This document shows positions 24,336 through 61,000 of a stretch of 64,000 nucleotides of DNA, piece by piece; within the stretch, counting starts at the first letter, position 1; each line of letters starts with the position of its first letter. The notes below the pieces were generated by a model that was not told the origin of the DNA, did not search any database, and worked only from the letters and a program-made list of their open reading frames with translations. The translations under genes were made by a program, and so were the position numbers. The DNA is from an uncultured Candidatus Saccharibacteria bacterium (GTDB lineage: Bacteria; Patescibacteriota; Saccharimonadia; Saccharimonadales; UBA7683): assembly GCA_964632215.1 (NCBI GenBank), contig CAZWBG010000001.1:431863-495862 (forward strand). Reading direction: 5' to 3'.

Positions 24336-24530
24336 ATGGTAAAAGATACCATAACAGTCAAAGAAGCTAAAAAGCTCTTAGGGCAAAAAGCTAAAAACCT
24401 AACCAACGAAGAACTAATAGCGTTAGTTCAAGCTACTGAAACAGTAGTGAGAGTTTCCATTCGCTCTTACATTCGTTCGAAAAACGTCAATAATAATGCT
24501 AACATAACAAGTACAAGGACAATACTATGA
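24336..24530 (+). CDS. Small protein upstream of the recombinase (possible directionality/accessory factor)
   Basis: 64-aa ORF with GAGG SD. Its stop overlaps the recombinase start (ATGA). Confidence 0.4.
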   Translation: MVKDTITVKEAKKLLGQKAKNLTNEELIALVQATETVVRVSIRSYIRSKNVNNNANITSTRTIL

Positions 24531-26062
24531 AAAAAGCGGTCATTTATCTTCGTGTATCTACTACTAAACAAACAGAAGGAGCAAGCCTCGACACACAACA
24601 AAAGCTGTGTCAGGACTGGGCATCACGTAACGATGTGCTGGTTAAAGAAATCTACCACGATGACGGTGTATCAGCTAAAACCCTAGACCGTCCTGCTATG
24701 AAAGAAATGCTTGCATATTTAGAAGCAAACAAAGGGAGCATACAATATCTCATTACTTACCAAACTGACCGCTTGTCTCGCAATGCTACTGACTTTTTCG
24801 CACTACGAACTCTCTTGTCACAATTAGGTGTTGAGTATAAGAATGTCAACTCAAGCCTAGAAGATAGTGTTAATGAAGAGCTTATACAGAACATTGAAGC
24901 CGTTCTTGCTCAACACGACAACAAGATTAAATCTACTCGTGTAAGAGACAACATGAAAGCCCACGCAAAAGAGGGCTGGCGTATGAGTAAAGCACCTCAT
25001 GGTCTAAAAAACGTTAGAGACGTTCTAGAGAAGTCTACACTAGCACCAATAGAGGGGGTTGCTGATAAAGTAGCCACTATACTTGAAGCATACGCAACAG
25101 GTACGCACACCATAGCTGGCTTAATTAAAATGTGTGAGAGCATTGGTCTGAAATCTGCGAAAGGTAAACCTATACAGATACAAGCTATCAGTAAGATGTT
25201 GCGTAACCCAATTTATGCAGGGCTTGAACAGAGTAGTCATACGGAGGGTCAACTTGTACCCTCCAAATTTAAGGGGATCATTACCCCTGCGGTTTTCCAT
25301 CGTAATCAAGAACTACTGAAAAGCAATAAGAACACGGCTGCTACATATATGAAAAACAACCCTGAATTTCCTCTGAGACGCTTTATGTTGTGTGCGAATT
25401 GCAATAAACCCCTTACAGGCAGTAGCCCAGTTGGTGGCTCAGGCAAACGCTCTCCACGCTACCACTGTTCGAGGTGCCATATCCCATCCGTGCAATCAGG
25501 AGAGCTTCATGAACAATTCCTACATCTGCTTGCTTCGCTTGCTCCTGATCCAGATATGGAGAAGTTCCTTAAGGAGATAATAGTACGTGTCTGGCGTGAT
25601 GAAACACAAGCACTAGGCAATAAGCAGAAGAAGCTCCATAAGGTCCTAGAACAGCTCACAAAGAAAAGGAATAAAGTGGTCGAGATGCTTGTTGCTGGCG
25701 ATATAACAGTAGACGATAAGAAAGAGCTTGTTGCGAAGATAAAGAAAGAGGCTGACGCAATACGGGAAGACCTTGCGAGTATCGGGTCATTATCTGAACT
25801 AAAAACTGATGCAATCGACTATGCAATGCGTTTTATGTCGAACGCACCAAGAATATGGAGCAACGCCTCGATTGAACATCAAATAATCTACCAACGTCTA
25901 GTGTTTCCAGAAGGCATAGAATACGACCTGACTACAAATAAATTTCGAACGCCCAGATTAAGTGCACTTTACACCTTAGCAAGCATGAAAAAAGACCCAT
26001 CCATGACGAATGAGTCTCTTTTGGTGACCCCAAGGAGAATCGAACTCCTATTGCCAGGATGA
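24527..26062 (+). CDS. Large serine recombinase (resolvase N-domain + recombinase domain + zinc ribbon + coiled coil)
   Basis: VIYLRVSTTKQ carries the catalytic Ser. Other marks are QTDRLSRN, CANCNKPLTG...RYHCSRC and a C-terminal K/E-rich helix. The last 41 nt are tRNA-Glu sequence (..VTPRRIELLLPG*). Confidence 0.88.
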   Translation: MKKAVIYLRVSTTKQTEGASLDTQQKLCQDWASRNDVLVKEIYHDDGVSAKTLDRPAMKEMLAYLEANKGSIQYLITYQTDRLSRNATDFFALRTLLSQLGVEYKNVNSSLEDSVNEELIQNIEAVLAQHDNKIKSTRVRDNMKAHAKEGWRMSKAPHGLKNVRDVLEKSTLAPIEGVADKVATILEAYATGTHTIAGLIKMCESIGLKSAKGKPIQIQAISKMLRNPIYAGLEQSSHTEGQLVPSKFKGIITPAVFHRNQELLKSNKNTAATYMKNNPEFPLRRFMLCANCNKPLTGSSPVGGSGKRSPRYHCSRCHIPSVQSGELHEQFLHLLASLAPDPDMEKFLKEIIVRVWRDETQALGNKQKKLHKVLEQLTKKRNKVVEMLVAGDITVDDKKELVAKIKKEADAIREDLASIGSLSELKTDAIDYAMRFMSNAPRIWSNASIEHQIIYQRLVFPEGIEYDLTTNKFRTPRLSALYTLASMKKDPSMTNESLLVTPRRIELLLPG

Positions 26063-26096
26063 AAACCTGGTGTCCTAACCGTTAGACGATGGGGCC
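26022..26096 (-). tRNA. tRNA-Glu (anticodon UUC), CCA encoded
   Basis: Cloverleaf by eye: GGCCCCA tc GTCT aacggtta GGAC a CCAGG ttTTCat CCTGG caat AGGAG ttcgatt CTCCT TGGGGTC a CCA. Confidence 0.9.
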
Positions 26097-40087: not shown

Positions 40088-40177
40088 TAGCTTATTATAC
40101 CAAACAAAAAAGTCTCTCTGATGAGAAGTCTTTCATAGTGCTTATGTTTGGAGGGACACGGTGGAACTTATCAGGAC
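40088..40177 (-). repeat. Cassette junction unit R3
   Basis: Minus strand reads GTCCTGATAAGTTCCACCGTGTCCCTCCA, then AACATAAGCACTATG. A weak hairpin with T6 follows, then TGGTATAAT, then 6 nt, then the ATG at 40087. Confidence 0.65.
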
Positions 40178-40194
40178 AAAGCTAATCGCAATGC

Positions 40195-40842
40195 CTAGGC
40201 CCGCAGTTTTATATCAAGTTGTTCCAGAAGAAATACATGAAACTCAGTCATGAATGGATTCCAGAGCATATGGGGGCGTTTGTGTTTTACGATGGTTTCA
40301 ATTATTTTATCTGGCTCAATGCCTACATATTCTTTATATCGCCACTTAGTAATTTCAGGTGGCATTAAGTAGTCAATAATATCTGGGTTGATTTTATCAA
40401 TTGATTTTGCGAATTTTGCCGATTTACTAGACTTTGTTTCGGCATCATCGTAAATATCATGGTATATAGGATTAAGGAGCCCGAGAGCCGCTTCTCGCTC
40501 TGTTATATGAGAGTCGACTTTTTTAGTAAATACCATTTCATCACCTGTGATTAGCTCTCCGATGTCATGAATCGCCATCATTATTAACGACTGACCCAAG
40601 TCAACATCCGAATCCTTAACGTAAGGATATAATGCAGTACCAAGCATAGGTAATGAGCCGACATGCTCTATGAGTGTTTCCCGCACTATGTCATCGTCAG
40701 GATGGTAATTGTATCCTTTGAGCTGTTCTTGTGCGACTTTCAGTAGGTACGGCTGTGTAGTGGCTCGTCGTTCAAGCGAGTAGTGCTCGAACAAGAATTC
40801 AATCTGATCTAGTATCTCTTGCATGCTTGGTACTTTGGGCAT
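40195..40842 (-). CDS. HD-domain phosphohydrolase (YfbR-like 5'-nucleotidase type)
   Basis: E.LIEHV......G...... followed by AIHDIGELITGDE. This is cassette 4. Confidence 0.65.
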   Translation of the reverse strand: MPKVPSMQEILDQIEFLFEHYSLERRATTQPYLLKVAQEQLKGYNYHPDDDIVRETLIEHVGSLPMLGTALYPYVKDSDVDLGQSLIMMAIHDIGELITGDEMVFTKKVDSHITEREAALGLLNPIYHDIYDDAETKSSKSAKFAKSIDKINPDIIDYLMPPEITKWRYKEYVGIEPDKIIETIVKHKRPHMLWNPFMTEFHVFLLEQLDIKLRA

Positions 40843-40932
40843 GCATTAATCATACCAAACAAAAAGACCTCTCGGATGAGAAGTCTTTCATGGTGCTTAT
40901 GTTTGGAGGGACACAGTGGAACCTATCAGGAC
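40843..40932 (-). repeat. Cassette junction unit R4
   Basis: Minus strand reads GTCCTGATAGGTTCCACTGTGTCCCTCCA, then AACATAAGCACCATG. AAAGACTTCTC-atcc-GAGAGGTCTTT with a T-run follows, then TGGTATGAT, then 6 nt, then the ATG at 40842. Confidence 0.65.
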
Positions 40933-40950
40933 TAGTATTATGCGATCTTG

Positions 40951-41376
40951 TTACAATTCAGAACGTATTTTCATCCATAATTTGCCGAGTTGATTTTCGC
41001 CGCCTCCATCCTTACCTCGACCCCAAAATTCATCAACAGGCGAATCCTCGGCAATTTCTTCGTCACCGCTTTTAACCAATGCATCACGGACTTCCTGGTG
41101 TTGATCAAGCTTTGCCCGAAGGATGGATTCCATTACTGACAGCTTTTTTGCACTCCAGTCAGAATCTTTTGCTGACTCATACTTCTGGTTACTAACTTCT
41201 TTGGCAAGCAACGGACTCTTTGCTGCTATTATTTCTCGTTTTCCGTCAGGATCAGTGCATTTAGCAGCTTGAAACGCGTGCTCACTCGTTGGATACAGAA
41301 CTCCATTAATTTCTACCGCATTAGCCGAGAAATTATTCAGAACATCGTACCACTGGCCGTAGAAATAAATAGGCAT
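40951..41376 (-). CDS. NADAR (YbiA/DUF1768) domain protein
   Basis: IYFYGQ...LNNFSA..VEINGVLYPTSEHAFQAAK plus a C-terminal ENQLGKLWMKIR. This is cassette 5. Confidence 0.75.
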   Translation of the reverse strand: MPIYFYGQWYDVLNNFSANAVEINGVLYPTSEHAFQAAKCTDPDGKREIIAAKSPLLAKEVSNQKYESAKDSDWSAKKLSVMESILRAKLDQHQEVRDALVKSGDEEIAEDSPVDEFWGRGKDGGGENQLGKLWMKIRSEL

Positions 41377-41451
41377 AAATTTATTATAACAAAAAAGACG
41401 CCTCTGATGAGAAGTCTTTCATGGTGCTTATGCTTTGGAGGTCCATCGTGC
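41377..41451 (-). repeat. Cassette junction unit R5
   Basis: Minus strand reads GCACGATGGACCTCCA, then AAGCATAAGCACCATG. AAAGAC..GTCTTTTTT follows, then TGTTATAAT, then 6 nt, then the ATG at 41376. Confidence 0.6.
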
Positions 41452-42086
41452 TAGCTATCGCAACTTTGCGTTAAAAGAAGTTCTACTCGTTGCTGATGTG
41501 GAACTTCAACCTCCTCATGATGCGCATTCACCGCATCAGTTGACAGGCCTATTGCGGCCGAAACCACAGCAGGCATTCTCAAGTCGTAAGGCGAAAGATA
41601 TCTAATTATATTACCCATATAGTTTGGCGTAAGCATGACATCTAAGACGCTTCCGCAAGTGTCAGCAGTTTCAATATCTTGTTCGGCCAGAGCTGCCTGT
41701 CCGTGACTAGCAATATCCATCACGTATCGAGCCGTTTGTGGGTGCATGACAGCGATAGCATTAAAGTGTGTCACCTCATCATGACGACGCCAGTCATTAA
41801 ATATAAACTCTTCATATGGTGCTACCAACTGGTCTTTAATAGCATCATAATATTGTGAAACAAGGTATTCACCCTTAGTAAGACTTCCGAGATATGCAGC
41901 CGTTGGTGTCCGTCCATAGGTGTCTATAAAAACTTCTTCACTTTCTACGATACGAATTGCTGGCTCATCTCCCATACCGAGTTTTTGGCGAAGCATAGCA
42001 GCCTCGGCATTATAGGCATCAAGGTCTTCAAGTTGTTCATATACAGGGTATCGTTTTAATAGTTCAAATTGCTCTACTTTTCCCAT
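41451..42086 (-). CDS. Hypothetical protein
   Basis: 211-aa ORF with GGAG SD 9 nt upstream. No motif recognised. This is cassette 6. Confidence 0.5.
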   Translation of the reverse strand: MGKVEQFELLKRYPVYEQLEDLDAYNAEAAMLRQKLGMGDEPAIRIVESEEVFIDTYGRTPTAAYLGSLTKGEYLVSQYYDAIKDQLVAPYEEFIFNDWRRHDEVTHFNAIAVMHPQTARYVMDIASHGQAALAEQDIETADTCGSVLDVMLTPNYMGNIIRYLSPYDLRMPAVVSAAIGLSTDAVNAHHEEVEVPHQQRVELLLTQSCDS

Positions 42087-42143
42087 TGCCTAACTCCGTA
42101 CTTAGTAATTACAGCTAGTTATATCCTTATTGAGGTGAGTATG

Positions 42144-42219
42144 CAAGCACAAGCAAAAAGGCTCCTCTAGCCAAGAAGTCTTTCATAGTGCTTATGTTTG
42201 GAGGGTCAGGAGGGACTAC
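42144..42219 (-). repeat. Cassette junction unit R6 (best tRNA-Lys 3'-end copy)
   Basis: tggagggtcaggagggact (42199-42217) matches tggagggccaggagggact of the intact tRNA at 18 of 19 positions. It is followed in the gene direction by AACATAAGCACTATGAAAGACTTC... and a T-run. Confidence 0.7.
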
Positions 42220-42273
42220 TTTGTATAATCTGCAAGCTTTCTCGAAGCGAGCTTCTGCGAGAGCTCTTGATTA
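42220..42273 (-). repeat. Family-1 hairpin insert splitting a pseudo-tRNA-Lys 3' half in the T-loop
   Basis: It is flanked by the tRNA-Lys 3'-end copy (42199-42219) and tcgaaccctcgacac (42274-42288, 15/15 identical to the tRNA). It is homologous to the insert at 48934-48991 and contains TTCTGCGA at 42253-42260. Confidence 0.6.
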
Positions 42274-42333
42274 TCGAACCCTCGACACTAAATCTGCTTC
42301 GCATATTTGTCTAGGGTTCAAGCCCTAAACATT

Positions 42334-42387
42334 CCAAAACAAAAACTCCCGAGATGGGAGTTCTTATTTTGGAGGGCTATAGTGGAC
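42334..42387 (-). repeat. Cassette junction unit R7
   Basis: Minus strand reads GTCCACTATAGCCCTCCA, then AAATAAG. The hairpin AACTCCC-atctc-GGGAGTT follows, then TTTTGTTTTGG. Confidence 0.55.
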
Positions 42388-42464
42388 ATTATCGTAACTG
42401 AAATAACAATTTGTAATTCTTGAACGTCTCTGTAGTGTTCCAAGAAACTTGTCTAAATGTAATT

Positions 42465-42488
42465 GGGCCGCGCAGAAATGCGCGGCCC
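42465..42488 (-). terminator. Perfect 10-bp GC hairpin after the G+C-rich cassette gene
   Basis: GGGCCGCGCA-gaaa-TGCGCGGCCC, located 65 nt past the stop at 42553. Confidence 0.5.
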
Positions 42489-42552
42489 GAGATCGGTTGC
42501 CCGTACGTTAATCTGCGAAGATCTCATTTACGCAGCGTATATGGATGGGCGG

Positions 42553-42879
42553 CTACCCGATGACCACCTGGCCGTTCACGGTCACCCGCTCGATGTCCCC
42601 GGTGTGGGAACCTCTGCTGCCGAAGTAGATCGGCGCTCCCAGCCGGAGGTAGCGGTCCATGACCACATTCTCCGGGAGGGGCGGGTAGTGCTTCCGGTTG
42701 GTGGTGGTGATCGACACTCCCTGGATGGTCGTGCGCTGGGCACGGGTCCCTTGGATGGTGACGAAGCACCAGGTGGAGCTACGGGTCGAGACCCGCACCA
42801 CCTGGCCCGGCAAGGCCCGACTCATGTCGTACTCCCGAGTGGGAGTGCGACGGTCCTGGTTTGCAAGCTCGGTTGCCAT
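42553..42879 (-). CDS. Hypothetical protein, strongly G+C-rich (cassette 7)
   Basis: AGGAGG lies 8 nt upstream of the ATG at 42879. Three overlapping alternative ORFs in other frames are judged spurious. No motif recognised. Confidence 0.55.
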   Translation of the reverse strand: MATELANQDRRTPTREYDMSRALPGQVVRVSTRSSTWCFVTIQGTRAQRTTIQGVSITTTNRKHYPPLPENVVMDRYLRLGAPIYFGSRGSHTGDIERVTVNGQVVIG

Positions 42880-42956
42880 AATGTTGGGCCTCCTATTGGC
42901 TCAACTAACCCCTAGCCTGTGCTAGGGTAACCTTCATCCTGTATGTAGGTTATGTT

Positions 42957-42985
42957 AATAATAAACTATGTTTCGATATTTGTCA
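42957..42985 (-). promoter_or_regulatory. Sigma70-like promoter of the G+C-rich cassette gene
   Basis: Minus strand reads TTGACA (42980-42985), a 17-nt spacer, then TATTAT (42957-42962). Confidence 0.5.
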
Positions 42986-43085
42986 ATACCTGAATTAAAT
43001 TATACGGGGATTATTTCACTAAAGAACAAACTTTTTTTAATGTAAATTTCCCAACCGACGACTATATCAAAGTTCGAGAGTATAT

Positions 43086-43134
43086 AAAAAGACCTCTAGA
43101 GAAGTCTTTTAAGAACAGTTAATGGAGGGACTCG
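43086..43134 (-). repeat. Cassette junction unit R8 (shortened tRNA-Lys 3' end + hairpin)
   Basis: tggagggactcg equals the tRNA-Lys 3' end with an internal deletion between its two GAGGG repeats. In the gene direction, the 9-bp hairpin AAAGACTTC/GAGGTCTTT and TTTTTATATAC follow. Confidence 0.55.
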
Positions 43135-43223
43135 GTCACATTCTGCGACCCCGAAACTTTCATACTTATGGCATAGCCACAAATCTGAAAGGTTTCCTTG
43201 CGAAATACCACTGGCATTTCTCA
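43135..43223 (-). repeat. Family-2 hairpin insert next to tRNA-Lys
   Basis: It shares two hairpins with 60752-60838: GGTCrC-attct-GCGACC, and GAAATrCC-nnn-GGCATTTCTC. TTCTGCGA lies at 43141-43148. Confidence 0.6.
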
Positions 43224-43290
43224 CCCTATCGGGTTCGAGCACGCCGCTAAATTTCCAATTTAAAAATCCACATAAAGTGGATTCATAAAT

Positions 43291-43367
43291 TGGAGGGCCA
43301 GGAGGGACTCGAACCCTCGACACCCTGCTTAAGAGGCAGGTGCTCTAACCAGCTGAGCTACTGGCCC
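43291..43367 (-). tRNA. tRNA-Lys (anticodon CUU), CCA encoded
   Basis: GGGCCAG ta GCTC agctggtta GAGC a CCTGC ctCTTaa GCAGG gtgtc GAGGG ttcgagt CCCTC CTGGCCC t CCA. Confidence 0.9.
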
Positions 43368-43483: not shown

Positions 43484-43505
43484 CAGCTGAGCTACTGGCC
43501 GTATC
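43484..43505 (-). repeat. Duplicate of the tRNA-Lys 5' end plus upstream flank
   Basis: cagctgagctactggcc-gtat repeats 43350-43372 (cagctgagctactggcccgtat) with one deletion, 117 nt upstream of the gene. Confidence 0.5.
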
Positions 43506-48704: not shown

Positions 48705-48875
48705 TACTTAGTCTTAATCATACCTCATACGACACGCGACTGTCACCACTTTGGTATTGAGAACCATGCAATCATAAAGGTCGGACCTTTAACAGATGAG
48801 GAAAATACAAGCTACAGAATGCCTCATATATTTACTAAAGTAAATATGGTCGACAGGCCGAGTTCATCGAAACAG

Positions 48876-48918
48876 ACCATGAAAAAAGCCAGGTACAAGA
48901 TCTGGCTTTTTTCATGGT
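48876..48918. terminator. Perfect 17-bp palindrome (bidirectional hairpin) abutting the pseudo-tRNA-Arg end
   Basis: ACCATGAAAAAAGCCAG-gtacaagat-CTGGCTTTTTTCATGGT. The right arm overlaps the first 4 nt of the tRNA-Arg 3'-end copy. Confidence 0.6.
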
Positions 48919-48997
48919 ACACCCGGACGGATTACTAAGGTATAGCCTGCAAGCTTTCTCGAAGTAAACTTCTGCGAGAGCTTTTGGTTATCGAACC
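48915..48997 (-). repeat. Pseudo-tRNA-Arg 3' half split in the T-loop by a family-1 insert
   Basis: tggtacacccggacggatt is 19/19 identical to 49064-49082. A 58-nt insert follows (48934-48991, with TTCTGCGA at 48970-48977), then cgaacc. Confidence 0.65.
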
Positions 48998-49063
48998 TAC
49001 GGTTCGTATTCGCTTCGCGAATATAACCAAACAAAAAATCCACCGCAGGGTAGATTCTTTGTT

Positions 49064-49140
49064 TGGTACACCCGGACGGATTCGAACCGCCGACCCTCTG
49101 TTCCGAAGACAGATGCTCTATCCAGCTGAGCTACGGGTGC
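49064..49140 (-). tRNA. tRNA-Arg (anticodon UCG), CCA encoded
   Basis: GCACCCG ta GCTC agctggata GAGC a TCTGT ctTCGga ACAGA gggtc GGCGG ttcgaat CCGTC CGGGTGT a CCA. Confidence 0.9.
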
Positions 49141-60732: not shown

Positions 60733-60849
60733 AGTCGGGGTAAAAGGACTCGGTCGCATTCTGCGACCCCGAAGCTACATCTTTCAAAACAAGTTTTGAA
60801 GAGTAGATTTCCTTGAGAAATGCCACAGGCATTTCTCCCCCTTCGACCT
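60733..60849 (-). repeat. Pseudo-tRNA-Pro 3' half split in the T-loop by a family-2 insert
   Basis: gtcggggtaaaaggactcg is 18/19 identical to 60926-60944. An 87-nt insert follows (60752-60838, with TTCTGCGA at 60758-60765). Then comes ccttcgacctc, 11/11 identical to the tRNA T-stem/variable region. Confidence 0.65.
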
Positions 60850-60923
60850 CGTCGTGAATTCGAAGTTTCAGAATCATGACTCAAAACCAAGTAAAAAGCC
60901 TATCCGAAGATAGACTCTTTACT

Positions 60924-61000
60924 TGGTCGGGGTGAAAGGACTCGAACCTTCGACCTCACGGTCCCAAACCGCGCGCGCTAGCCAACTGCGCCACACCCCG
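60924..61000 (-). tRNA. tRNA-Pro (anticodon UGG), CCA encoded
   Basis: CGGGGTG tg GCGC agttggcta GCGC g CGCGG ttTGGga CCGTG aggtc GAAGG ttcgagt CCTTT CACCCCG a CCA. Confidence 0.9.

Follow-up and report, generated by a model that had tools for sequence, protein, structure and literature searches.

The stretch of DNA considered here, 64,000 nucleotides (nt) of contig CAZWBG010000001.1 and referred to as the window, belongs to the chromosome of a member of the Saccharibacteria (TM7, candidate phyla radiation (CPR)), bacteria with tiny genomes and few recognised mobile elements. Its serine hydroxymethyltransferase (SHMT) shares 100% identity with a protein from a 690-kb contig, and the nearest relatives bearing a name are assigned to Candidatus Saccharimonadales or Saccharibacteria. 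ARAGORN and Rfam locate six tRNA genes in the window, and three of these are followed by short units that repeat parts of the tRNA itself around a structured module. There are five such units: three in tandem after tRNA-Lys, one after tRNA-Arg, and one, built around a different module, after tRNA-Pro. The units form an apparently undescribed family; a literature search on tRNA-linked hairpins of CPR bacteria and Saccharibacteria, on T-loop-targeting non-autonomous elements and on palindromic repeats downstream of tRNAs yielded nothing relevant.

Read in the sense of the tRNA, a unit comprises seven parts: (i) nt 58-76 of the working tRNA, up to and including the CCA; (ii) a terminator made of an A-tract, a hairpin and a T-tract; (iii) a collinear antisense copy of the tRNA, best kept over tRNA nt 46-60; (iv) a small hairpin, often with a C(GNA)G triloop closure; (v) the 5' strand of the T-stem in sense orientation together with TTCG; (vi) the module; and (vii) a displaced copy of nt 58/59-76, again running to CCA and usually followed by another terminator. 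Units measure 130-190 nt, contain no open reading frame (ORF) and have the same orientation relative to the tRNA in all copies. The module belongs either to family 1 (57-58 nt in the window) or to the unrelated family 2 (~87-105 nt). It splits the T-loop at nt 56/57|58/59 in the case of family 1 and at nt 53-55|56 in the case of family 2, with junction positions that differ by 1-2 nt between subtypes.

An earlier reading of the window, made from its letters alone (the sequence-only reading), had described 3' halves of tRNA-Lys and tRNA-Arg that are interrupted at one T-loop position by homologous hairpin inserts, and this description largely stands. Behind tRNA-Lys, nt 42274-42288 are identical to nt 43309-43323 of the intact gene (15/15), nt 42198-42217 match nt 43290-43309 at 19 of 20 positions (all on the minus strand), and a 57-nt insert (42217-42273) separates these two flanks. 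Behind tRNA-Arg, nt 48915-48933 repeat the 3' end of the gene without mismatch (19/19); the insert has the proposed length of 58 nt and spans 48933-48990, its junction being ambiguous by one A. The two inserts are indeed homologous, with 88% identity over 58 nt, and their consensus of 32 specified bases occurs twice in the window, compared with 0.00 occurrences expected by chance. The similar 3' flanks that had been noted behind both intact genes correspond to unit-borne terminators (43255-43290 and 49027-49063). The palindrome reported beside the Arg copy is present as well, but it spans 48877-48917, has 16-bp arms and overlaps the CCA. It looks like a bidirectional terminator and, lying beyond the displaced tRNA-Arg end, is probably the original one. 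Past this second terminator, at ~48720-48876 on the minus strand, a 32-nt stretch follows the antisense of the tRNA-Arg 3' half collinearly, with about 19/32 positions agreeing by eye, and more hairpins come after it; this region is probably a decayed older unit.

There is good support for both modules as new structured motifs: their covariation is clear, and Rfam has no entry for either. The family-1 module behind tRNA-Lys consists of an outer helix, a covarying helix P1, the core CTCTCGCAGAAG-CTCG-CTTCGAGAAAG and a 9-nt tail ending in AGTA. Covariation was evaluated in a gap-free alignment of 53 distinct family-1 copies against 500 shuffles and against controls with slid partners. Helix P1, which flanks the invariant core, covaries strongly: 52 cells are changed on both sides as opposed to 17.2 ± 3.5 in the shuffles (0/500 as high), and its covariation score is 0.201 versus at most 0.054 with slid partners. 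Among the five pairs nearest the core, G·T outnumbers A·C by 14 to 3 on the tRNA-sense strand, indicating that it is this strand that folds. Divergent cores, found by eye, retain the asymmetric internal loop CGCAG / CGAG(M)A, and the stem inside this loop is compensated (GAAG/CTTC, GGAG/CTCC, GGAA/TTCC and longer stems). Family 1 also shows tandem G·A pairs and tetraloops of the CUUG type; a K-turn was considered for the core and rejected, the tandem G·A pairs not lying beside a 3-nt bulge. The family-2 module adopts a four-way junction in which the T-stem closes three further helices and the joining strands are conserved. With no more than six copies compared, 18 of the 38 pairs predicted in its consensus fold are compensatory; it also has one conserved G·U pair. 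The family-2 module of the first Lys unit recurs after tRNA-Pro and in the loci L051, L069, L029 and L024. The modules are under purifying selection for structure.

Rfam 15 gave no match over either module at gathering score or at E <= 5, and in seven further loci it returned a group I intron only. This intron (L053, 5449-5700, plus strand, 71.6 bits) lies directly upstream of a T-arm and 3' end (...CCCCGGAGCCA) for which ARAGORN makes no tRNA call, and a family-1 unit stands behind the gene. The modules themselves were also considered as tRNA introns, of group I or protein-spliced; this was rejected, as the interrupted copies lack the tRNA 5' half and ARAGORN and Rfam call intact genes only.

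Such features could point to a structured RNA that is transcribed along with the tRNA by read-through of the terminator, either a small RNA mimicking a tRNA end, with a 3' end processed as in a tRNA, or a cis-acting device in which the antisense copy and its decoy steer the folding of the tRNA 3' half, the duplication being a by-product of the origin of such RNA genes. Covariation with G·T wobbles on the tRNA-sense strand, the conserved G·U pair and conserved joining strands of the multi-helix family-2 junction, the tandem G·A pairs and CUUG-type tetraloops of family 1, and the fixed orientation relative to the tRNA are all in keeping with this explanation, as are the terminators and small hairpins, which change compensatorily between copies (L005 vs L044), and the conservation of the antisense copy against nt 46-59 of the working tRNA. 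On the other hand, no promoter was found for the units, a canonical terminator separates the tRNA from the rest of the unit, and even the permissive Rfam search is empty; the distribution of the units among tRNAs and genomes, described below, is a further difficulty.

The family-1 core was sought with an exact pattern (TTTCTCGAAG-N3-6-CTTCTGCGAGA) in one genome per prokaryotic species and was found in 59 contigs, nearly all of them from metagenome-assembled genomes of Saccharibacteria or other Patescibacteria. In about 40 of the 59 contigs the core is found 85-120 nt downstream of an intact tRNA and has the same orientation, and the tRNAs concerned cover at least 14 specificities (Tyr, Phe, Ser, Trp, Glu, Met, Gly, Pro, Arg, Lys, Asp, Leu, His and Ala). 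A covariance model, R1, built from the alignment of family-1 modules, was run over 556 kb of fetched Saccharibacteria DNA, most of whose loci had been chosen for containing the module. It gave 62 good matches, so that the inserts extend well beyond the two copies first described, and every match adjoins tRNA fragments, with none elsewhere. R1 is too narrow for several divergent cores (L002, L017-2, L034, L045-1, L061 and L065), which were recognised by eye. Across the fetched loci, 42 of the 90 tRNAs with enough sequence have a downstream second copy of their last 16 nt. Two of these duplicated ends belong to a neighbouring tRNA gene; all others, about 40 copies, are preceded by a module and never by an intact T-loop. 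Since none of these displaced copies has an intact T-loop, the module is integral to the unit rather than a later arrival.

Orthologous sites differ in their content. Relatives of the window were sought through a metagenome scan with MurB, which led to eight distant loci (~50% identity), two of them useful. At the tRNA-Arg(TCG) site, where the window has a family-1 unit, the closest fetched relative (L068, SHMT 88% identical) is empty, a plain terminator being followed by the next gene; L069 carries a family-2 unit, and L065 a family-1 variant with a different hairpin. Neither of the findings that would have refuted the sequence-only reading was made, as there are many further copies and relatives have empty sites. 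Two contigs from the same species as the window, with an identical SHMT (L071 and L072), are uninformative on strain-level polymorphism, because both short-read assemblies stop inside tRNA-Arg, ~126-140 nt past murB. Judged by these comparisons, the units appear to behave as inserted DNA that is mobile or was so recently. Presence, absence and type that vary at orthologous sites argue against the structured-RNA explanation, as do tandem arrays with decayed distal copies and the restriction of units to some of the tRNAs (three of six in the window, 0/4 in L068 and 1/4 in L069). Altogether, a structured RNA as the primary role of the units seems distinctly unlikely.

The antisense copy was compared, as its reverse complement, with the local tRNA. 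Identity amounts to 21-33% at nt 44-45, rises to 67-100% at nt 46-59, and falls again to 42-75% at nt 60-64 and 12-54% at nt 65-75. Because the conserved segment covers the breakpoint of the module, it can pair with both halves of the T-arm, the module being extruded between them. In minimum-free-energy (MFE) folds many units form a three-way junction at the breakpoint, with the antisense copy acting as a splint of the split T-arm; in the third Lys unit, nt 42289-42333 pair with nt 42274-42288 in the MFE fold with DNA parameters. The whole Lys unit of 171 nt folds below shuffled sequences (z = -4.45 with RNA parameters and -3.98 with DNA parameters, with 0/200 shuffles as good), and the 83-90-nt pseudo-halves by themselves have no such advantage over shuffles (z between about -1.2 and -1.6). 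The alternation of a sense copy, the terminator palindrome, a collinear antisense copy, a small palindrome and a second sense copy is also what two fold-back switches would produce, and in L007, L028, L021 and the Arg unit of the window the second turn measures only 2-4 nt. The units might then be a mutational by-product: snap-back template switching at the terminator hairpin and the small hairpin would have turned tRNA nt 46-76 into a direct-inverted-direct triplication. Such an origin would leave the conserved modules at the breakpoint, the spread over tRNAs and genomes and the lack of uninterrupted third copies all unexplained, and we consider it hardly probable at all.

A mirror-image arrangement exists on the 5' side. 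Displaced tRNA 5' fragments lie 110-185 nt upstream of working genes in L008, L029, L034, L042 and the window, and they break in the D-loop, the D-arm or the anticodon loop. In L029 the D-arm of a displaced pseudo-tRNA-Gly harbours the family-2 module, its ends unchanged, and in L008 a family-1 variant follows nt 37 of a pseudo-tRNA-Met; both modules are oriented to the tRNA as in the 3' units. Furthermore, the variable flanks of the modules are on average more similar between different tRNAs of the same assembly (mean identity 0.605, n=6) than between the same tRNA in different assemblies (0.475, n=35) or among all other pairs (0.41, n=1612); the module subtype tracks the genome, not the tRNA. 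The small hairpin does not track the genome in this way (L004 vs L056). In the locus L015, at ~60-200 in tRNA sense, a single scaffold contains two consecutive family-1 modules that differ in subtype, with CCGGTC between them and CTGGTC after the second; one of its two cores has the compensated stem GGAG/CTCC.

These observations bear on the possibility that the module alone is mobile: a REP-, PATE- or MITE-like hairpin would jump into loop-coding tRNA-like DNA and persist only where an intact second copy stands beside it, the scaffold stemming from a separate or coupled duplication. The presence of modules of both families, in the same orientation, at displaced 5' fragments (D-arm in L029, nt 37 in L008), the serial modules of L015 and the differing behaviour of module subtype and small hairpin all fit this possibility, and so do the lack of a target-site duplication around the module and its invariable position after TTC(G). 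It is harder to reconcile with the displaced 3' copies, none of which (0 of about 40) lacks a module, so that no dead copies awaiting insertion seem to exist, and with the covariance-model matches, 62/62 of which adjoin tRNA fragments in the 556 kb. In addition, the junctions shift by 1-2 nt between subtypes, the four-way junction of family 2 is not a transposon-end hairpin, and no Y1/HUH transposase was seen in ORF clustering of the 59 loci, whose ORFs were not domain-scanned. That the module moves by itself is unlikely in our view, though not far-fetched.

In several loci (the Lys array of the window, L051, L024, L015 and L045) units and cargo cassettes are mixed in tandem arrays, in which decayed unit copies lie farther from the tRNA; remnant tRNA ends of 7-9 nt stand ahead of several units. 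The Lys array, whose features are compiled together with those of the other two tRNA loci in Table 1, illustrates this organisation. Its second unit carries an orphan ORF of 108 aa with a G+C content visibly above that of the surroundings (~44%); the ORF has no Pfam match and, among 5.8 billion proteins, matches only itself. The array continues into an island without integrase, the edges of which are formed by a 32-nt direct repeat, CCCTCCAAACATAAGCACTATGAAAGACTTCT, with one copy from 42206 and the other at 40124-40155. The repeat is composed of the tRNA-Lys end and AACATAAGCACTATGAAAGACTTCT; the CATAAGCACTATGAAA terminator module of this repeat also occurs after the tRNA-Gly copy in L035. A DHFR-like (RibD_C-type) gene of ~200 aa lies near units in four loci (among them L035, 3012-3611, and L019, 2394-2996). 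In L035 two copies of the module plus the tRNA-Gly 3' end enclose this gene, and it is likely to be cassette cargo.

Table 1. Features of the tRNA-Lys, tRNA-Arg and tRNA-Pro loci of the window (positions in the window; all on the minus strand)
Feature	Position	Strand	Remarks
Displaced tRNA-Lys 5' fragment, nt 2-18	43484-43500	(-)	D-loop break; 134 nt upstream of working gene
Intact tRNA-Lys(CTT)	43291-43367	(-)	Head of tandem array; ARAGORN; Rfam tRNA 72 bits
Lys unit 1 (family 2), whole	43123-43290	(-)	Sequence
Lys unit 1, terminator	43255-43290	(-)	
Lys unit 1, antisense copy, loop and T-stem 5' strand	43224-43254	(-)	
Lys unit 1, family-2 module	43135-43223	(-)	89 nt
Lys unit 1, collapsed displaced 3' end	43123-43134	(-)	CGAGTCCCTCCA
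Lys unit 2 (cargo-bearing), whole	42370-43122	(-)	
Lys unit 2, terminator	43080-43122	(-)	
Lys unit 2, degenerate antisense/T-stem piece	43053-43079	(-)	
Lys unit 2, sigma-70-type promoter	42958-42986	(-)	Near-consensus, 11/12
Lys unit 2, orphan ORF	42553-42879	(-)	GC-rich, 108 aa
Lys unit 2, second terminator	42465-42488	(-)	
Lys unit 2, remnant 3' end	42370-42378	(-)	AGCCCTCCA
Lys unit 3, A-tract/hairpin/T-tract terminator	42334-42369	(-)	Ends TGG; homologous to spacer after tRNA-Arg
Lys unit 3, antisense copy of tRNA-Lys T-arm 5' half	42309-42333	(-)	
Lys unit 3, small hairpin	42289-42308	(-)	Tip GCGAAGC
Lys unit 3, sense copy of tRNA-Lys nt ~44-58	42274-42288	(-)	GTGTCGAGGGTTCGA; 15/15 vs gene
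Lys unit 3, family-1 module	42217-42273	(-)	57 nt; covariance-model score 62.3 bits
Displaced tRNA-Lys 3' end, nt 59-76 incl. CCA	42199-42216	(-)	17/18 vs gene
Integrase-less ~2-kb island, array continuation	40124-42198	(-)	Unknown 211-aa ORF, NADAR ORF, HD-domain ORF
Intact tRNA-Arg(TCG)	49064-49140	(-)	ARAGORN, Rfam
Arg unit, proximal part	48991-49063	(-)	
Arg unit, terminator	49027-49063	(-)	
Arg unit, degenerate antisense and GCGAAGC hairpin	48998-49026	(-)	Includes palindrome CGAACC-GTA-GGTTCG
Arg unit, GGTTCGA	48991-48997	(-)	66 nt past gene
Arg unit, family-1 module	48933-48990	(-)	58 nt; 88% vs Lys copy; covariance-model score 63.2 bits
Displaced tRNA-Arg 3' end	48915-48932	(-)	18-19 nt, 100%
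tRNA-Pro(TGG)	60924-61000	(-)	
Pro unit (family 2), whole	60734-60923	(-)	
Pro unit, terminator	60887-60923	(-)	
Pro unit, antisense copy	60851-60886	(-)	
Pro unit, T-stem 5' strand	60840-60850	(-)	
Pro unit, module	60753-60839	(-)	87 nt
Pro unit, displaced 3' end	60734-60752	(-)	

The arrays also raise the question of whether the units are inert attachment (att) scars that integrase or serine-recombinase islands left behind after internal deletion. Large islands and a serine-recombinase element do occur in the same arrays (L027, the tRNA-Glu locus of the window and the 2-kb island), and the remnant tRNA ends of 7-9 nt before several units are compatible with such a history. Yet the complete architecture is found at similar length at about 40 sites, and the same 130-190 nt are not what a number of independent deletions would leave time and again. 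With the module structure under purifying selection and the ends of larger islands seen without a module, scars of this kind are a very unlikely source of the units.

The search for a partner enzyme covered all ORFs of at least 120 aa within about ±4 kb in the 59 loci, which were clustered and not domain-scanned, and, by Pfam, selected ORFs of the window. Clustering revealed no recurrent recombinase or transposase; the recurrent families are syntenic housekeeping genes and the DHFR-like cargo gene. Among the selected window ORFs Pfam detected no tyrosine recombinase. A large serine recombinase gene (Pfam Resolvase and Recombinase) is located at 24527-26062 on the plus strand and overlaps tRNA-Glu (26022-26096, minus strand), its last ~13 codons being antisense to the 3' half of the tRNA. 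This gene is a probable sign of an element integrated in the low-GC region at ~19-26 kb; no second tRNA-Glu end was found. In L027 a large serine recombinase gene stands beside tRNA-Asp, and a 5.1-kb element lies between the tRNA and an older unit. Neither of these two recombinases is systematically adjacent to units.

Three options had been left standing by the sequence-only reading. Its att-type scars come closest to the evidence, as the modules lie between an intact tRNA and its displaced nt 58/59-76, the sites are polymorphic and units stand in tandem with islands; they are not scars of ordinary islands, the normal state being a complete, recombinase-less unit of 130-190 nt at tRNAs of at least 14 species. 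A miniature element targeting T-loops is weakened by the absence of intact T-loops from the roughly 40 displaced 3' copies, and it retains some appeal from the modules that abut 5' fragments at D-arm and anticodon-loop positions and from the genome-specific subtypes. The small structured RNA is supported as a property of the sequence (covariation, G·T wobbles, the multi-helix family 2); the lack of any promoter found and the terminator upstream speak against it as a transcript.

The explanation that we favour, tentatively and at somewhat less than an even chance, is that the units are miniature, trans-dependent integrative elements that insert at the centre of the T-loop and regenerate the tRNA end, with serine-recombinase ssrA islands and cis-mobilizable elements as their nearest analogues. 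A regenerated target combined with a displaced fragment is characteristic of elements whose integration sites are tRNA or tmRNA genes. Insertion may proceed in the following manner: A small element inserts site-specifically by means of an attachment site that would imitate the T-arm and have the module in its loop. Crossover would take place between the module and the element-borne nt 58-76, and a crossover at this boundary would leave the tRNA intact and place the module against the displaced fragment; in the Lys array, nt 58-76 of the working tRNA would then come from the most recent insertion. Because the module parts the two half-sites, the attachment site would presumably be read in a folded, single-stranded form (single-stranded DNA or RNA), which would also account for the antisense splint and the strand-specific covariation. 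The irregular helix CGCAG/CGAG(M)A may serve as the handle for the trans-acting machinery. As the units are devoid of recombinases, the enzymes may be encoded elsewhere, or units may move by accretion with neighbouring elements; alternatively, they could spread between cells by recombination in which the tRNA and the second copy of its end provide the homology arms.

Several points weigh against miniature integrative elements. The units have no associated recombinase, transposase or reverse transcriptase, the two serine recombinases are only 22% identical and each occurs at a different tRNA, and a scan of viral contigs for the core gave 0 matches, with no free or circular form seen. Double-stranded site-specific recombination works poorly on circles of 130-190 bp. 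In its match to the working tRNA the antisense copy surpasses the sense copy next to it, a comparison biased by the choice of the segment for its similarity to the tRNA; such an excess would not be expected of a self-contained folded attP. The conserved G·U pair, the tandem G·A pairs and the loops of the CUUG type would suit a role as RNA, for which the model has no need. Homologous modules and small hairpins occur at many tRNAs, so that an element bringing its own tRNA 3' end would have to be retargeted each time, which the model does not explain; the units may have arisen by way of target-site duplication or homologous recombination instead.

A more far-reaching version of the idea, which we hold to be quite improbable, regards the units as programmable, structure-guided mobile elements, in which a folded strand (RNA or single-stranded DNA) would use its sense (nt 46-57 and 58-76) and antisense (nt 46-60) segments as addresses. 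These address segments would surround a conserved module, catalytic or protein-binding, insertion would occur at the T-loop, the D-arm or the anticodon loop, and the gene would be rebuilt in the process. Programmable elements of this sort would function like bridge-RNA- or omega-RNA-guided systems or folded attC/CTX sites, from which they differ in their parts.

If the favoured explanation is true, undescribed parasitic or hitch-hiking DNA occupies a large share of the tRNA genes examined (3/6 in the window and 42/90 in mostly module-selected loci), and the puzzle arises of how an element without an enzyme targets many essential genes without killing its host. At tRNA genes the units give rise to variable arrays of cassettes. 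They may break short-read assemblies, and they resemble tRNA 3' halves, so that annotators could mistake them for pseudo-tRNAs. Should the address segments turn out to be programmable, they would be of interest for genome engineering.

Among known systems, islands that integrate into tRNA and tmRNA genes show a regenerated target and a displaced fragment as a rule and include a class with T-loop sublocation (Islander, PMC4383910). The units share with them the target that is split and then regenerated, the displaced 3' fragment at the far end (17/18 nt for Lys and 19/19 nt for Arg), the breakpoint in the T-loop (a dyad-symmetric arm) and tandem accretion at one tRNA. In contrast to these islands, the units span 130-190 bp instead of kilobases, have no integrase (a tyrosine or serine enzyme that islands usually encode beside the regenerated gene) and usually no gene, and form one homologous family at 14 or more tRNA specificities; a structured module inside the split T-arm and an antisense T-arm copy alongside it are further differences. 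The ssrA islands of Dehalococcoides (PMC3146451) insert midway through the T-loop, encode a large serine recombinase of the DsiB/CcrB type next to attL and have a 20-bp direct repeat, of which many tandem copies occur, each with a conserved motif directly upstream; their recombinase-less members have been proposed to be cis-mobilizable. Mid-T-loop insertion, a direct repeat of ~20 bp reaching to the 3' end, tandem arrays, a conserved element-side motif upstream of the repeat and members without recombinase are common to both. Serine recombinase genes that abut tRNAs on the opposite strand are found here, too (tRNA-Glu in the window and L027), in separate elements only and not next to units. 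The Dehalococcoides islands hit a single target, ssrA, measure several kb and use a linear motif of 15 bp, whereas the motif of the units is a covarying folded module of 57-105 nt.

Cis-mobilizable elements (CIMEs) resemble the units in their att-like bounding repeats, in their lack of recombination genes and in their tandem arrangement with other elements. They derive from a known integrative and conjugative element (ICE) or integrative and mobilizable element (IME), with which they have att arms in common; the units are far smaller, and no parent element was identified. From what is generally known of integron attC sites and the attP(+) site of CTX, the likeness lies in an imperfect hairpin of at least 57 nt with a conserved irregular core, covarying stems and strand-specific folding. 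The order of direct site, inverted copy, loop and direct hybrid site likewise recalls the end of an integrated CTX prophage, and the non-coding 'cassettes' recall integron arrays. The units are not attC sites: the core RYYYAAC/GTTRRRY is absent from the 58 copies inspected, and the only similarity, AAC/GTT within CGAACC/GGTTCG, is part of the T-arm mimic. They also differ from attC and CTX sites in their target, the tRNA T-arm instead of attI or dif, in the four-way junction of family 2, and in that no IntI and nothing of the Xer type was seen.

The ends of REP/PATE, IS200/IS605 and IS91 elements, again as commonly known, are comparable as short, mismatched or bulged multicopy hairpins, here 3' of a fixed TTCG (which contains GTTC). 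IS200/IS605- and IS91-type elements insert after a fixed short sequence without target-site duplication. Unlike REP/PATE hairpins, all 62 copies adjoin tRNA fragments with a regenerated tRNA part, and no Y1/Y2 transposase was seen nearby (59 loci, not domain-scanned, with the rest of the genomes unsearched). As in the omega/reRNA of TnpB and the bridge RNA of IS110, on general knowledge of these RNAs, an end scaffold precedes 18-19 nt that are identical to the flank of the target, and the target is copied around the crossover in both sense and antisense. The units differ from both in that no TnpB, IscB or IS110 gene is adjacent in the window or the loci and Rfam gives no match, and in that the 'guide' also matches the cell's own working tRNA. 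What is known, then, is the logic of tRNA-integrating elements; new are the small size and genelessness of the units, their presence at many tRNAs, the three-way junction of a split T-arm with its antisense splint, the two covarying modules and the mirror form on the 5' side.

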